DNA of 64,000 nt, taken from Tolypothrix carrinoi HA7290-LM1. Its GTDB lineage: Bacteria > Cyanobacteriota > Cyanobacteriia > Cyanobacteriales > Nostocaceae. Both the position numbers and the translations under genes were made by a program. Position 1 is the stretch's first letter, and every line of letters starts with the position of its first letter. Location of the stretch: NCBI GenBank assembly GCA_019358935.1, contig JAHHIK010000011.1, forward strand, positions 1 to 64,000, written 5' to 3'. Under the pieces are notes generated by a model that searched no databases, was not told where the DNA came from, and saw only the letters and a list, made by a program, of their open reading frames with translations. Shown one piece after another: positions 47,715 through 53,081 of this stretch.

Positions 47715-49136
47715 TTAACCACTAATAGCTTCAGCCTGTGCTTCTGGTAACAAACGCTTCACACCTTGCTTAACAAACCCCTGCAAAAAACCAATTTGCT
47801 GATTTTGCACAAAGACATTTTGCAACGTTTGCCGCAATTTATCGAGATTCAAACCACCTTCAGAATTTAAGGCAATTTCCTGCTGCTCGAAATACTCGAT
47901 TAAGCTTAAACCTGCTACTCTGGTAAGATAAGCTGCACTCACACCTTGCACGACACCACCAGCAACAAAGGTGACAGCATTACTCTTGAGGACAGTGCTA
48001 ACAGCTTTCGTAGAAAGTTCTACCAAACCGAGTTTCAGCATCAAACTTCCCATTGCACCGGCTACAGTTTGCGCTTGTTCAAGGGAAAATTTCTGCTGAT
48101 AAATACCACCCAAATCGATTACCATTTGGGCATTAATTGCCGCTGTTGCCAAAATATCCAACGCTGGTACTGGGTTAGCGAATGCCGCAGCCGCAGCGAT
48201 CCACTGATATTGTTCTATTATGGGAGTTGCGCGATCGCCTCTCACCTGATTCAACAACTTCTTCGCATCAGCTTTCAGCAACTTCGCTTTTCTCATCGTA
48301 GTTGTCCACACCAGTTGTTGTTTTTGCTGTGCGACAATCTCATTTAACTGCTGCGTCAACTGCTGAATGTCTGGTGCAGGTTGTTCCATCCATTCTTGCA
48401 GGGAACCGTCTTCTTGATGCTTCCGCACCTTGATGGGCAAAGGAGACACCGCTGTTGCAACTACATTCGTCTGCATCCGCTGTTTCAACGACAGTAACAC
48501 GCTTGCGCGTTCGTCTGGTAAATACTGGTCTTGTTTGTTGAAAACCAGCATTGCAGGTTGATTTGCTGCCTTTAACTGCTGTAAACTTTTAAATTCTGAA
48601 TCTGTCAAATCACCGTTTGTCAAAAACAGAACAAAATCAGATTGATTAACTTCTGAAGTAGCAGTATCTGACTTTTCACTTGCTTCTACAAACAAAGGTG
48701 CTGTTTCGTTGAATTGTACAGATGCGAAATTTTTCCGTAGAACTTGAATTAAGGTGGTTTTACCTACCGACTTTCCACCAGTAACAGCTAGTTTAATTTC
48801 TTGTCTATCTAATTCAAAGAATAATTGATTAACTTGTTCTCGCAGCGTTTTTAAAGCTGGATGGTTTTCAGCTTCACCTGCAAGTTGGTTAATTACGACT
48901 TCAGTAAGTGCGATCGCTTCTTCTACTCTAGCCCGATTTACAGGCATTCCATCAAAGATATCAGAAGCATTTTTGCCGCGATTTGGCTTAAATAACCACA
49001 AACCACCACCAACTGCTACGAGACTCAATAAACCAAACTCTCCCACCTGCACCATTGAATGGTGCATATTTTGCAAAATCCATAGAGAAAAGGACAGTCC
49101 CAATCCTCCCACTAAAATCGGTCGCTGCAACTTCAC
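47715..49136 (-). CDS. DUF697/YcjF-family P-loop GTPase-like membrane protein
   Basis: 'GGKSVGKTT', 'GDLTDSE', 'NKQDQY', 'AAAFANPVPALD'; GTG start at 49136 after a GGAGAA RBS. Confidence 0.85.
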   Translation of the reverse strand: MKLQRPILVGGLGLSFSLWILQNMHHSMVQVGEFGLLSLVAVGGGLWLFKPNRGKNASDIFDGMPVNRARVEEAIALTEVVINQLAGEAENHPALKTLREQVNQLFFELDRQEIKLAVTGGKSVGKTTLIQVLRKNFASVQFNETAPLFVEASEKSDTATSEVNQSDFVLFLTNGDLTDSEFKSLQQLKAANQPAMLVFNKQDQYLPDERASVLLSLKQRMQTNVVATAVSPLPIKVRKHQEDGSLQEWMEQPAPDIQQLTQQLNEIVAQQKQQLVWTTTMRKAKLLKADAKKLLNQVRGDRATPIIEQYQWIAAAAAFANPVPALDILATAAINAQMVIDLGGIYQQKFSLEQAQTVAGAMGSLMLKLGLVELSTKAVSTVLKSNAVTFVAGGVVQGVSAAYLTRVAGLSLIEYFEQQEIALNSEGGLNLDKLRQTLQNVFVQNQQIGFLQGFVKQGVKRLLPEAQAEAISG

Positions 49137-49348
49137 AACTATGATTCTCCGCGCTTTTTCGATCCCTTCTCCTCCAGAATAGATCAAAAATTCCCTTGGA
49201 CAAATTCCACAGGCAACTCCAGACAATCTTCTTTACTTACAAACGGCAGTAAAATTAACTCCCAAGTGTTGTGATACCGGGCTAAACGTGGTTTACCTGC
49301 CGCTTGTCAGTCTCAACAAAGTGTATTTTGGTATCATAGCTTATGAAC
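49108..49348. repeat. Direct repeat copy (about 241 bp; partner 51126-51367) containing the endonuclease 3' end and the DUF697 5' end
   Basis: First about 159 bp differ at 2 positions by eye; the last about 80 bp are more diverged and carry a 1-bp indel. Confidence 0.95.
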
Positions 49349-49350
49349 CA

Positions 49351-49441
49351 TAGGACTTACGCAACAAGGACTTGAAAGCGTTATACCGTAGCGATAATTC
49401 ATGAATTATCGCTACTTGAGTTATGTTTTGCGCTCATTCCT
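49351..49441. mobile_element. Small MITE-like element with internal GTAG palindrome
   Basis: Ends AGGACTTACGCA / TGCGCTCATTCCT; internal GTAGCGATAATTCATGAATTATCGCTAC; a related copy is at 57326-57422. Confidence 0.6.
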
Positions 49442-49548
49442 GAACCAATACGGTTCAGTTAAAACTCAAATTTAGGTAAATAAAGTATTGTTGCCAAAAA
49501 TGATAATTGAGTGTCGTGTATCTCAGGGATTTATAGCCGCTCCAAAAG

Positions 49549-50457
49549 GTGAGAGTCATGTCAAAGACAGAGCATGAATGCTGCGCTATAGAAAAGGCAA
49601 TCTTAAAAAGCTTTAATCGTCAATCTCTACTCTCCAACGACAATTTGCTTTGGAGCGGTATCCGCTTCCAGTTCACTCATAGCAACAGCGCAAGTGCATT
49701 GCCAGAGGAGATTATCTTTCCAGAAAATGCGATTCATATTTATACAGAAATGCCGTCTGATTATGTTATTGAAGCGCGAATTAATGGACGATCGCAAAAA
49801 AGCTCGCTTGTCACGGGTCATAGTCTCATCATTCCACGCGGCACTGCTTATTGGCAATCAGACAACCACAAAAGCAAAGGCATTACTTTAGGTTTGAATT
49901 CCAGCTTTCTTGCCCGCACTCTCTCTGAATCGATTGACTTAGATTGTCTGGAACTGCAACCGCAATTTCCGACGTTTGACCCCCTCATTTATCAAATTGG
50001 GCTAGCGCTAAAAGCTGAATTAGAACAGAATCGGTATTCTAGCCGCTTATATGCAGAATCTGCCGCGACGTTTCTCGTCACCCATCTTTTCCACCATTAC
50101 GCTTGTCGCTTGACAAAAGAGCAAATCACAACAAGTGGCTTGCCTAAGTACAAATTACAACAAGTCATTGATTACATTCATGCCAACCTTGACTGTGATA
50201 TTGGCTTGACTGAATTGGCTGACTTGGCTTTGATGAGTCTCTCCCACTTCTCTCGATTATTCAAACAATCAACGGGATACTCACCCCATCAGTTTGTCAT
50301 CAAGTGCCGCGTCGAGCAAGCTCGTGAACTCCTCCTCAAAAGTGATTTGTCGATCGCGGATATCAGTTATCAAGTCGGCTTTGCCAATCAGGGGCATTTA
50401 ACCAATCATTTTAAGCGTCTGCTAGGAGTCACGCCTAAAGTCGTTCGAGAAAAATAG
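49549..50457 (+). CDS. AraC-family transcriptional regulator
   Basis: C-terminal double HTH 'LAD.A.MS.SHFSRLFKQSTG.SPHQF', 'SIADISYQVGFANQGHLTNHFKR..GVTP'. Confidence 0.95.
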   Translation: MRVMSKTEHECCAIEKAILKSFNRQSLLSNDNLLWSGIRFQFTHSNSASALPEEIIFPENAIHIYTEMPSDYVIEARINGRSQKSSLVTGHSLIIPRGTAYWQSDNHKSKGITLGLNSSFLARTLSESIDLDCLELQPQFPTFDPLIYQIGLALKAELEQNRYSSRLYAESAATFLVTHLFHHYACRLTKEQITTSGLPKYKLQQVIDYIHANLDCDIGLTELADLALMSLSHFSRLFKQSTGYSPHQFVIKCRVEQARELLLKSDLSIADISYQVGFANQGHLTNHFKRLLGVTPKVVREK

Positions 50458-50652
50458 CAGAAACGTGTAAAAAAAGTCAAAACTTGTAAGATTAACTAAG
50501 AGTGCGATCGCTACTTTAGAAATCAGGATGCGCTGCAAGTGTCATTTGCTAGGCTGGATACTTTTATCCACCCTACAAGTTAAAAATTATAGCAGATTGC
50601 AACTGCGTCCTAGAAGTAACAAAACTTAGAGCTTCCAAGGAAAGATATTCTT

Positions 50653-51066
50653 ATGGGAATAAAATTTACCGGCGGTTGTCTGTGCGGATCTGTCCGCTAT
50701 GAATGTTCAGCCGAACCGCTTGCAATGGGCAATTGTCACTGTCGCGATTGTCAACGAGTGACAGGAAGTGCTTATGCTTCCGGACTTATGGTGCCGCAGA
50801 ATACAGTTACCATCACCGGAGATGTGAAATACTATGATGTAATTGGCGATAGTGGCAGCATTGTTGGTCGGGGCTTTTGCCCAAACTGCGGTTCCCGATT
50901 ATTTAGCAAACCCCCAAACCCTGAGCTTATGAACATTATGGCAGGGAGTCTCGATGACCCAAGCTGGTTTAGACCTGTAATGGATGTTTATACAGCCAGT
51001 GCCCAGCCGTGGGATTACATGAACCCGGATCTGCACAAATTTGCCAAGATGCCACCGATGCTTTAA
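50653..51066 (+). CDS. GFA (glutathione-dependent formaldehyde-activating, Mss4-like) family protein
   Basis: 'GGCLCGSVRY', 'CHCRDCQR', 'FCPNCGS' zinc motifs. Confidence 0.93.
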   Translation: MGIKFTGGCLCGSVRYECSAEPLAMGNCHCRDCQRVTGSAYASGLMVPQNTVTITGDVKYYDVIGDSGSIVGRGFCPNCGSRLFSKPPNPELMNIMAGSLDDPSWFRPVMDVYTASAQPWDYMNPDLHKFAKMPPML

Positions 51067-51201
51067 AGTCCCGCGTCATGATGCCTGCCAGACCAACCAC
51101 GCTTCGTCCGCATCAAGAGTGGCAGCCCACTAAAATTGGTCGCTGCAACTTCACAACTATGATTCTCCGCGCTTTTTCGATCCCTTCTCCTCCAGAATAG
51201 A

Positions 51202-51684
51202 TCAAAAATTCCCTTGGACAAATTCCACAGGCAACTCCAGACAATTTTCTTTACTTACAAACGGCAGTAAAATTAACTCCCAAGCATCACGATACTTAGC
51301 TGAACGTGGTTTACGCTGCCGCTTGTCTGTTTCAACAAAGTGTATTTCGCTACCATAGCTTATGAACACATCTACCGGGAAGATATAGAACAGATCAAGT
51401 TTCTCTATATATACCAAGGCAAAATCAAAGTCGGATTTTTTGTACGCTTCTCTAACCATTAGTCGCCGATTTGTCTTGGTGCGGCGATTATCTACGACAT
51501 AATTACCTGAAGGCTGATCAAACCAGGCATATTTAACTTGGATTTTAATCAGAGTTCCTTCGACATCAAACGCCAAATCGTAAGGAAGGCGATCGCCAAC
51601 GGGCTTTAAAACTCCCCAACCACGCTTTAAGGCATGAAGAATTGCAGCTTGTTCTGCTATGTCTCCTCTTAGCTTTGTGTCCAT
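51202..51684 (-). CDS. Free-standing PD-(D/E)xK homing endonuclease, I-Ssp6803I-like (PDDEXK_5)
   Basis: 'TKLRGDIAEQAAI..ALKRGWGVLKP.GDRL.YDL.FDVEG...KIQVK', 'YVVDNRRT.TNRR', 'FISYGSEIH.VETDKRQRKPRS'; E11, D36, Q49, K51 present; strong recalled similarity to I-Ssp6803I. Confidence 0.9.
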   Translation of the reverse strand: MDTKLRGDIAEQAAILHALKRGWGVLKPVGDRLPYDLAFDVEGTLIKIQVKYAWFDQPSGNYVVDNRRTKTNRRLMVREAYKKSDFDFALVYIEKLDLFYIFPVDVFISYGSEIHFVETDKRQRKPRSAKYRDAWELILLPFVSKENCLELPVEFVQGNF

Positions 51685-51715
51685 TTGTTACTTGGATATA
51701 GCTGCTAATCAGCAT

Positions 51716-51761
51716 AAAACAAAACCCTGCAACTTTTGAGTGTTACAGGGTTTTGTTTTTT
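51716..51761 (-). terminator. Intrinsic terminator between tRNA-fMet and the endonuclease gene
   Basis: Minus-strand RNA AAAACAAAACCCUGUAAC-loop-GUUGCAGGGUUUUGUUUU; fully paired with one G.U pair, ending in a U tract. Confidence 0.85.
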
Positions 51762-51765
51762 AAGT

Positions 51766-52086
51766 TGGTGGCGGGAAGTGGATTTGAACCACTGACCTTC
51801 GGGTTATGCTTACCATCTACAGTTTTCACTGCCTGGATTAACCAGTTTGTGGTCTGGACTGTCCCTTTACCCTCAGCTTTCCTGTTAGGGTACCTGCCTT
51901 CCAGTCTCTACACCTTCTCCATTTCTGGAGCTTGGTTCGGGATTACCGCGCTAGTGGCTTCCCCGAGTTTGACAGGTAATCATACGTAAGTTTCTTTACG
52001 TACCGCCCATAGTAAGACTAACTTTTAAGCGTTTAGTCAATCTTACTCGTTGAGCCCGACGAGCTACCAGGCTGCTCTATCCCGCG
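51766..52086 (-). tRNA. trnfM: Initiator tRNA-fMet(CAT), split: exon 1 52086-52053, exon 2 51808-51766
   Basis: Joined exons give 77 nt: CGCGGGATAGAGCAGCCTGGTAGCTCGTCGGGCT|CATAACCCGAAGGTCAGTGGTTCAAATCCACTTCCCGCCACCA. It has a C1xC72 mismatch, three G-C pairs in the anticodon stem and an encoded CCA. Confidence 0.97.
51809..52052 (-). ncRNA. Group I self-splicing intron (IC3-like), 244 nt, ORF-less, inserted between U33 and C34
   Basis: Follows a U and ends in omega-G; P1 GCU|CA pairs with UGGGC (U.G at the splice site); P10 CAUA/UAUG; P3 ACCUGUC/GGCAGGU; P AAACUCGGGGAA; Q AAUCCCGAAC; R AGAGACUGGA; S GGACAGUCC; P9 GCAGU-GAAA-ACUGU. Confidence 0.95.
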
Positions 52087-52098
52087 TCGTCTTTATTT

Positions 52099-52127
52099 AC
52101 TATAACCCAAGCTTTTAAATTTGGCAA
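52099..52127 (-). promoter_or_regulatory. Sigma70 promoter of tRNA-fMet
   Basis: TTGCCA-17 nt-TATAGT, 12 nt upstream of the tRNA 5' end. Confidence 0.75.
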
Positions 52128-53081
52128 CTACAAAAGTGATAATTCTCCAACAACTTCTAAACGCTTGTATTTCCCGAAGTTCATAAACTTTTCTGACAAA
52201 CTTTGAGCGACGCTGGGGCTAATCCAGCCCATCTGCTGAAGCACATGAATAGCAACAGCGTATTTTGCTCGCTTTGCTCCATCTATGACTTTAATTGCCA
52301 ATCCCATGCCTTCACCAAGTCGAGAAATGCACTGCACTCCTTCGGCACCGGATTTACTTACCAGTTCTCCTGGAGCCAAACGCATCAGTTCTGTATCAAA
52401 TTCTCCGTCTCCCGCTACCAAATTGGGATGATGAGTCATGGCACGGACAATGCGCTCCATATCCAAATTGTTACCCGACGCTAGCAGAGCATATAAAGAC
52501 GCTATTTGAGCAAGTTGCATGAAATAGGTGGGTACACCACAATCATCACGAGCGCTGATAAATTCTTCTGCCGGCATTCGTAGCAATTCTGCTACTTTGC
52601 TGACAATCAATTGCTGGATGGGGTGTTTGCGTTCCAAGTAGTTATTTAAAGGAAAATGGCGCTGCTGACACACGGCTAACATCCCCGCATGTTTACCAGA
52701 GCAGTTGTATTCCAAACGACTTTTTTTACCTTCGGGAATCGGACATTGAAGTGCGCTGGGATCGAGATCGGCACGCCAAAGAATATTAAATGCTTGTCGT
52801 ACCTGCTCGATTGTACCTTTGTGAGAAGATACGATAATTGCTAAGTCGCGATCGCTCAAATCATAACGTTCCAGTGTACCTGTGCTGGTAACAGCCAGTG
52901 CCTGAAATGGTTTGAGGGCTGAACGGACAAAAGTTGCTGTTTCGGCGTTTCCCGCAACGGATAGCACCCGTCCCCGTTCATCGCAGACAACAGCTTGGAC
53001 TATGTGCCTCGATTCAATAATCCCTTCCCGCAGCAACCTTACTTCAAGTGCTGCCGCTTGAGTTCGTTTTCCCCTGGTCAT
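52128..53081 (-). CDS. L-asparaginase II family protein
   Basis: 'REGIIESRH', 'RSALKPFQA', 'NCSGKHAGML', 'DDCGVP', 'SKSGAEGV'. Confidence 0.9.
   Translation of the reverse strand: MTRGKRTQAAALEVRLLREGIIESRHIVQAVVCDERGRVLSVAGNAETATFVRSALKPFQALAVTSTGTLERYDLSDRDLAIIVSSHKGTIEQVRQAFNILWRADLDPSALQCPIPEGKKSRLEYNCSGKHAGMLAVCQQRHFPLNNYLERKHPIQQLIVSKVAELLRMPAEEFISARDDCGVPTYFMQLAQIASLYALLASGNNLDMERIVRAMTHHPNLVAGDGEFDTELMRLAPGELVSKSGAEGVQCISRLGEGMGLAIKVIDGAKRAKYAVAIHVLQQMGWISPSVAQSLSEKFMNFGKYKRLEVVGELSLL

Follow-up and report, generated by a model that had tools for sequence, protein, structure and literature searches.

We analysed a 64,000-nt stretch of the cyanobacterium Tolypothrix carrinoi HA7290-LM1 (positions 1 to 64,000 of contig JAHHIK010000011.1, assembly GCA_019358935.1; hereafter the window), in which the gene of the initiator tRNA, tRNA-fMet, is interrupted by a group I intron without an open reading frame (ORF) and is followed by a free-standing gene for a homing endonuclease of the I-Ssp6803I type. 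The tRNA gene (52086-51766), the intron and the nuclease gene all lie on the minus strand. The 5' exon (52053..52086) has 34 nt and ends with U33, a pattern that recurs with at most one mismatch in 50 of 52 related loci, and the 3' exon (51766..51808, 43 nt) begins with CAU and encodes the CCA end. As read from the sequence, the anticodon stem holds three G-C pairs and pair 1:72 is mismatched, which are the marks of an initiator tRNA. The genome is 99.65% complete in 184 contigs, and no uninterrupted target site was found in it with up to two mismatches, so that the question raised by a preliminary description of this DNA, whether other tRNA-fMet copies are intron-less, is answered in the negative. 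Since no second exact copy of the 3' exon was found in the genome either, the interrupted gene is the only initiator tRNA gene found, and for this reason its intron must presumably splice. Upstream of the gene there is a promoter-like site (52099..52127, minus strand; TTGCCA, 17 nt, TATAGT), which agrees with the consensus at 10 of 12 positions and is a consensus match only.

The intron (51809..52052) has 244 nt, lies between U33 and C34 and ends with G, and the U-C and G-C boundaries are its sole canonical placement on reading of the sequence; the coordinates and anatomy given in the preliminary description hold. It matches the whole model of Rfam RF00028 (positions 1-253) with 47.1 bits, at E 7e-11 for the region and 2.2e-10 for the genome. 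In the family search proposed earlier, the match thus covers the full model, its 47.1 bits are just under the gathering score of 50, and the intron is not listed by RF00028 at the gathering threshold. No ORF of at least 40 aa was found on the tRNA strand inside the intron, and one 78-aa frame crosses it on the opposite strand. Among 24 homologous introns RNAalifold predicts 69 pairs, 30 of which stay paired through changes on both sides, which indicates that the RNA structure is under selection. The helices are read as P3, P4, P6, P8 and P9; the P7 pairing was drawn by eye only, as were a 3-bp P1 (GCU with GGC) and a 4-bp P10 (UAUG with CAUA), and no longer forms of the latter two could be drawn. 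The GGGC motif is invariant in the alignment of the 24 introns and so shows no covariation. We also aligned metatranscriptome contigs from four runs with 51150-52130. Both exon-intron boundaries are covered by contigs that are 99% alike; in one contig exactly 244 nt are missing, and in three the 3' exon is followed directly by sequence of the 5' exon. The exons of tRNA-fMet are nearly universal and the runs come from mixed communities, so that these contigs are not assignable to T. carrinoi and show neither splicing nor expression at this locus. As a practical point, a sole initiator tRNA gene can escape annotation: ARAGORN makes zero tRNA calls anywhere in the window, and because it misses 51766-52086 and the intron lies just below the Rfam gathering score, the genome may end up without an annotated initiator tRNA gene.

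Two more group I introns were observed in the same genome, at C30:8671-8936 (L095, 63.6 bits) and C18:56060-56312 (L096, 61.3 bits; contigs and loci are designated here by C and L with a number). Both exceed the Rfam cut-off, and ARAGORN calls a tRNA at neither place.

The nuclease gene (51202..51684, minus strand) is an intact frame of 160 aa that starts 81 nt past the CCA end of the tRNA, beyond a strong hairpin, and is not encoded in the intron. The protein matches the I-Ssp6803I structure PDB 2OST with E 6.9e-68 and Pfam PF11645 with 187 bits (cut-off 26.1; E 1.5e-55), and a search of NCBIfam assigned it to no family. The intact PD-(D/E)xK gene described earlier is thus confirmed together with its distance, its strand and the residues E11, D36, Q49 and K51, which we take to be catalytic following the preliminary description. 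All four are invariant in 49 of 49 alignment rows of free-standing forms and in 10 of 10 rows of intron-encoded forms (some rows represent the same species twice). The 2OST chain has Q at the position of E11, as a catalytic mutant would. Between tRNA and nuclease lies a terminator-like hairpin of 18 bp (51716..51759, minus strand), with an A-run before and a U-run after it; RNAfold gives -30.2 kcal/mol for the 81-nt spacer, and a scan for consensus terminators does not list the hairpin. A comparable hairpin with A-run and U-run flanks follows directly after the tRNA in 40 of 40 spacers folded, with differing stem sequences, and leaves 20-45 nt before the start codon of the nuclease.

The genome contains a second PF11645 member (L003:1349-2145, contig C50; 218 aa, 34% identical, E 1e-20). 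It is likewise free-standing, with no intron beside it; upstream of its start, at a distance of 66 nt, is an uninterrupted tRNA-Arg(TCT) gene.

The locus agrees with I-Ssp6803I of Synechocystis PCC 6803 in protein family, host gene, insertion after U33, intron core and catalytic residues. Over residues 1-139, the identity with the protein encoded in the 655-nt intron of L059, a genome of 3.6 Mb, is about 75%. Unlike I-Ssp6803I, the gene in the window is not inside the intron but 81 nt behind the tRNA; the intron measures 244 nt, versus 644-655 nt in the cyanobacterial forms that carry the gene inside; and the protein has an extra tail of about 10 residues, which derives from the former P3 of the intron, as set out below.

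To see how common the layout is, we sorted the 52 loci of a related-locus search by exon motifs and reading frames. It turned out that 43 of them have the outside layout, with an intron of 242-245 nt and the nuclease gene downstream of the tRNA. The gap between the two is 55-95 nt wide in 39 of them, and in the other four it measures 202-1185 nt. Six have the inside layout with an intron of 648-713 nt, in one deltaproteobacterial and one gammaproteobacterial metagenome-assembled genome and four Patescibacteria, and the remaining three are intron-less, with tRNA-fMet followed by nuclease remnants. The outside gene is intact in 33 loci and broken or truncated in ten (L022, L034, L037, L041, L043, L045, L046, L047, L050 and L053). 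In 401 genomes sampled evenly from the same order, intron holders were counted from long matches only; many matches of 60-95 nt at query positions 106-198 were excluded as the core of another group I intron, probably that of tRNA-Leu. The nuclease has a match in 27 of these genomes and the intron in 64. Both occur in 24, and by their coordinates 19 of these are outside and five inside forms. Three of the five belong to a single genus (3.6-4.0 Mb), the fourth to a sister genus and the fifth to a different family. For the other 40 of the 64 intron-bearing genomes no nuclease match was obtained. In Nostocaceae the neighbourhood is fixed and runs RsfS, a CGLD27-like gene, Asparaginase_II, tRNA-fMet, nuclease gene and DUF697 gene. 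In the window the upstream neighbour Asparaginase_II (PF06089) is at 52128..53081 and the downstream DUF697 gene (PF05128; 43 loci, 70-95% identity) at 47715..49139, both on the minus strand. The survey of intron and nuclease states suggested in the preliminary description thus shows the split layout to be widespread, the majority state among cyanobacterial genomes with this nuclease and ordinary for its clade, and the impression of an unusual chromosomal case has to be given up. In the literature searched we found no description of a free-standing I-Ssp6803I homologue behind an intron-bearing tRNA-fMet, and earlier papers on the family may mention homologues.

Some longer ORF-less introns were seen as well: L074 (297 nt), L084 (311 nt), L075 (258 nt) and L079 (262 nt) carry extra inserts of 14-70 nt, which are located in the P9 region in L075 and L079 and at query positions 123-136 in L074 and L084. 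One genome contains two intron-bearing tRNA-fMet genes on one contig (L070 and L071, about 610 kb apart); the two introns are nearly identical, and no nuclease gene was found in this genome.

At its 3' end, over ~80 nt, the free-standing gene shows homology to intron nt ~20-100, that is, to a hairpin strand, P2 and P3. In the window, the intron-derived tail of the nuclease gene (gene nt ~397-465; 51220..51288, minus strand) corresponds to intron nt ~20-88 (51965..52033, minus strand), which comprise the 3' strand of the 5'-proximal hairpin, the GAAA-capped P2 hairpin and the 5' strand of P3. We searched the 3' part of the nuclease genes by nhmmer with a profile hidden Markov model of 44 ORF-less introns, and the profile matched the nuclease tails in 27 of 44 loci at E<0.1 (best 7.8e-7). 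The pairing is always colinear and in the same place, intron nt ~14-100 with gene nt ~391-473. In the window and the majority of loci, no relic was detected past intron nt ~100 in nucleotide comparisons. In two genomes of another family, the alignment of the tail with the genome's own intron extends over nt 20-135 (L081) and 20-153 (L082), with scores of 43 and 47 against shuffle means of ~21.5 and maxima of 36 and 35.

In ten intron-encoded forms the frame starts 17-29 nt past the 5' splice site and stops directly before the P3 strand CCUGUCAAAYUCGGGGAAGC, except in L038, which reads through it. By eye, the last codons of the inside forms fold as a GAAA-capped hairpin, the stem of which differs by lineage and stays paired, and in the cyanobacterial inside forms L059, L062 and L063 the leader pairs with the codons for '..LIL..', which correspond to the hairpin strand of the ORF-less intron. 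The ORF-less intron keeps all three elements, and its first helix closes a 13-nt loop in place of the gene. In the free-standing gene the same three elements are the last ~25 codons: the stop codon is gone and P3 is translated, as ...PVQLGEA... in many relatives and as ...PVEFVQG... in the window. A three-way alignment of the intron, the inside-form tail and the outside-form tail gives one homologous block, in which the P2 stem is paired in the intron copies and unpaired in the gene tail as judged by eye. As the tail is homologous to the intron and the inside frames end exactly there, we conclude that the nuclease gene probably escaped from an intron and is not the ancestor that preceded an invasion. 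From the alignments, the ORF-less intron can be read as an ORF-bearing intron minus roughly codons 1-132, and the free-standing gene as a copy that took part of the ribozyme along when it left the intron. The two may have come to coexist by tandem duplication with reciprocal loss or by ectopic insertion of a fragment, both of which are possible. Under tandem duplication one would expect the remnant of a second 5' exon or of a leader in front of the start codon of the free-standing gene; inspection of that region by eye gave nothing convincing.

The preliminary description had left the direction open between an ancestral state and an escape, and it is the escape that the P2-P3 relic at the gene end favours. 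If the order were the reverse, a free-standing nuclease beside an ORF-less intron would be the older state, and the Synechocystis-type intron would have arisen when the gene moved in. Such a pathway, in which a free-standing nuclease that cuts the insertion site later moves into the intron, was reportedly proposed by Bonocora and Shub. The protein tree gives no strongly supported direction that would oppose it, and collaborative homing of such a kind is described in phages (PMC3984707). But the homologous elements of the gene tail, P2 and P3 and in L081 and L082 further ones, have a role in the ribozyme and lie past the Pfam domain of the protein; P2 pairs in the introns and looks unpaired in the gene tail; and inside forms, which are present in cyanobacteria and in three further phyla, branch from the base of the tree or close to it. 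We therefore regard a pre-invasion state as very improbable. A quick tree built from 80 rows unites all but one of the 49 outside forms in a single group (Shimodaira-Hasegawa-like approximate likelihood-ratio test, SH-aLRT, 80), and the inside forms and more distant members of the family lie outside it. In the approximately unbiased test on a smaller set, a single clade of all outside forms is not rejected (p 0.51), which is no proof of one. The argument for direction is carried by the relic and not by the tree, because the tree, with only 139 columns, is poorly resolved.

To figure out how the free-standing gene has been inherited, we compared it with its neighbour in the 30 loci where the nuclease is intact and the neighbour gene has no gaps, which gave 433 usable pairs over the core (codons 1-139). 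The ratio of nonsynonymous to synonymous divergence (dN/dS) is 0.087 for the nuclease core and 0.075 for the Asparaginase_II neighbour. Median dS is 0.76 for the nuclease and 0.79 for Asparaginase_II (r = 0.73), and the nuclease has the lower value in 48% of the pairs. This parity indicates that the nuclease descended with its neighbours under purifying selection, for about as long as the genera diverged. The proposal of the preliminary description that intron and nuclease spread by co-conversion is not demonstrated, as the synonymous divergence equals that of the flanking gene. The same values bear on the idea that the gene is an inert leftover, recently stranded, inactive and decaying. In its favour, a frameshift disrupts the gene of the closest relative, L037 (98% identical), another nine loci have broken genes, and a scan for consensus promoters gave no signal of expression. 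Against it, the frame in the window is intact, dN/dS is low across all pairs, 63 of the 139 core columns do not vary and none of the four catalytic residues has been lost, so that we consider an inert leftover hardly credible.

A different explanation of the selection is that the nuclease has been domesticated: it would no longer spread by itself and would be kept for a benefit to the host, for instance because it destroys incoming phage or plasmid DNA with an intron-less tRNA-fMet or keeps the tRNA-fMet locus uniform across genome copies. A dN/dS and a dS that match the adjacent housekeeping gene over dS ~0.8, a fixed syntenic position and invariant catalytic residues agree with it, as does the fact that PADLOC has a model for the nuclease ('HEase', E 1.3e-73), which is labelled only 'homing endonuclease'. 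However, ten of the 43 outside genes are broken or truncated, no nuclease match was obtained in the 40 intron-bearing genomes mentioned above or in 20 of 27 sampled genomes of the window's own family, and none of the analyses run indicates a host function. Domestication is thus unlikely in our judgement.

The distribution of target sites agrees with the split-module reading of the preliminary description, in which the intron serves as immunity and the outside nuclease cuts intron-less alleles. Among the 27 genomes of the sample with a nuclease match, an exact uninterrupted target occurs in three, the same three that lack the intron. In two of them the nuclease gene is a fragment, and in the third it is a copy with unrelated sequence in place of residues ~10-60. 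Similarly, among the 46 genomes behind the cyanobacterial loci the exact target is found only in the three intron-less ones (3 of 46), where the nuclease is wrecked. As the genomes are related to one another, these counts are given without statistics. A target variant with two mismatches exists in eight of the 46 genomes, four of which have intact genes. In two genomes that we viewed (L098:934-1010 and L099:935-1006), the variant is a tRNA-Met inside an array of 14-15 tRNA genes. Such accessory arrays place 14-15 tRNA genes in 2 kb, and the two mismatches of the tRNA-Met variant compensate each other in the stem.

Besides, the loci form a series of decay. The nuclease of L037, whose protein is 98% identical to that of the window, is frameshifted, and in L068, of another family, the intron is present without a nuclease gene, and the first ~eight nuclease codons are kept behind the tRNA hairpin. 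From its sequence, L068 is the apparent footprint of a deletion of the outside gene. Together with the intron-less loci that retain remnants, these cases point to decay of the nuclease followed by loss of the intron. The L068 relic, in minus-strand orientation, is located ~50-75 nt behind the CCA end, keeps the conserved spacer motif and precedes a DUF697 gene.

Taken together, the locus is probably an old, vertically inherited trans-homing module, in which the nuclease escaped from the intron and the intron serves as immunity. According to this model, the nuclease gene would originally have been carried by a tRNA-fMet intron, inside the loop of the 5'-proximal hairpin, as in the inside layout of the Synechocystis type and of some candidate phyla radiation, deltaproteobacterial and gammaproteobacterial genomes. 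In this lineage a deletion, reaching from roughly the start codon to roughly codon 132, would have removed the gene from the intron, and a full copy of the gene with ~80-130 nt of intron (hairpin strand, P2, P3 and beyond) would have landed behind the terminator-like hairpin. The pair would then have been inherited with its chromosomal neighbours. By splitting the target in the anticodon arm, the intron would shield the tRNA gene from the nuclease, which is kept functional by selection. The most likely substrates of the nuclease are intron-less tRNA-fMet alleles, whether imported or newly formed in the cell. Once cut, such an allele would be repaired with the resident one as template and so acquire the intron, and also the nuclease gene if the tract is long enough. 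Once the nuclease gene has decayed, the intron could be lost later.

In phages, collaborative homing is described as a free-standing nuclease beside a group I intron with no ORF or a defunct one in the expected target gene (PMC3984707), and the cases of trans-homing include F-CphI with the cyanophage psbA intron and T4 mobE with the nrdB intron and I-TevIII (PMC3984707, PMC2790892, PMC6083498). The locus resembles these cases in that a free-standing nuclease adjoins an ORF-less intron in its presumed target gene. Unlike them, the module is in a bacterial chromosome and in an essential single-copy tRNA gene; the nuclease appears to be the former passenger of the same intron and not an unrelated enzyme that converged on the site; and the direction is out of the intron, with vertical inheritance over long times.

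One syntenic locus shows an intact nuclease with intron, a broken nuclease with intron, the intron alone, and an intron-less tRNA with remnants. This is like the life cycle of homing endonucleases, said to run from invasion through decay to loss (Goddard and Burt 1999, cited in PMC1995217). In contrast to it, the intact genes have a history of long-term purifying selection and vertical descent and not the shallow, host-incongruent history of reinvasion across species.

Several observations weigh against the escaped trans-homing module. The relic match of the window itself is weak (E 0.032), and the case rests on its relatives. In L074, L075, L076, L078 and L079 the scores of tail against intron are not above those of shuffles, and in the three-way alignment the L039 tail shows unrelated sequence in place of the relic, for which a second origin or a later replacement is possible. 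The protein trees have low resolution, with some rows of unknown genomic context placed among the inside forms. The parity of dS shows vertical descent and not spread, and any homing must be within species and has left no trace in these data. Of the 43 outside genes, the ten broken ones include the closest relative, L037, and four of the 33 genomes with an intact outside gene hold the two-mismatch variant of the target. Moreover, the region between the hairpin and the nuclease start codon gave no promoter-like site in a consensus scan; expression by run-through from the tRNA promoter is our guess.

Beyond the trans-homing module itself, we give a modest chance to a further view, that there was one early exit, in heterocyst-forming and related cyanobacteria, and that the nuclease has since been a resident guardian under housekeeping-grade selection, either as an addiction-like pair with the intron or as a defence that serves the host. 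In this view it would persist by eliminating or converting any intron-less initiator-tRNA gene that appears in the cell, for which the invasion of new species would not be needed. If true, a chromosomal homing endonuclease would have turned from a parasite into a long-term resident, with every stage represented at one syntenic locus. Apart from this view, the sequence relic records traffic of a nuclease out of an intron, opposite in direction to invasion, and the split state has since remained stable under purifying selection across a large bacterial clade. As intact, broken, deleted, intron-only and intron-lost states with remnants exist at the same locus, the life cycle is testable in culturable cyanobacteria.

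Downstream of the tRNA gene, the window also contains a 241-nt direct repeat (families D1 and D2). Copy 1 (51126..51367) covers nuclease codons ~107-160 and 76 nt downstream, and in copy 2 (49108..49348) a decayed, frameshifted nuclease 3' end is joined to the true start of the DUF697 gene. The copies are identical at 225 of 241 positions, 94% and 90% in two parts, and bracket a 1.8-kb insert (49349-51125). The insert carries an AraC-type regulator (49549-50457) and a GFA-family gene (50653-51066) on the other strand, that is, the plus strand of 49549..51066. Copy 2 was considered as a trace of a foreign nuclease allele, and this was rejected, as its nearest relative is copy 1 of the window (225 of 241) and not another lineage. 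Among the 52 loci, the repeat with its insert is found only in the window and L037. Between these two, the distal copies differ more (225 of 239 identical) than the proximal ones (234 of 241), which indicates that the repeat event predates their split, and integration of a circular fragment by one crossover would fit as its mechanism.

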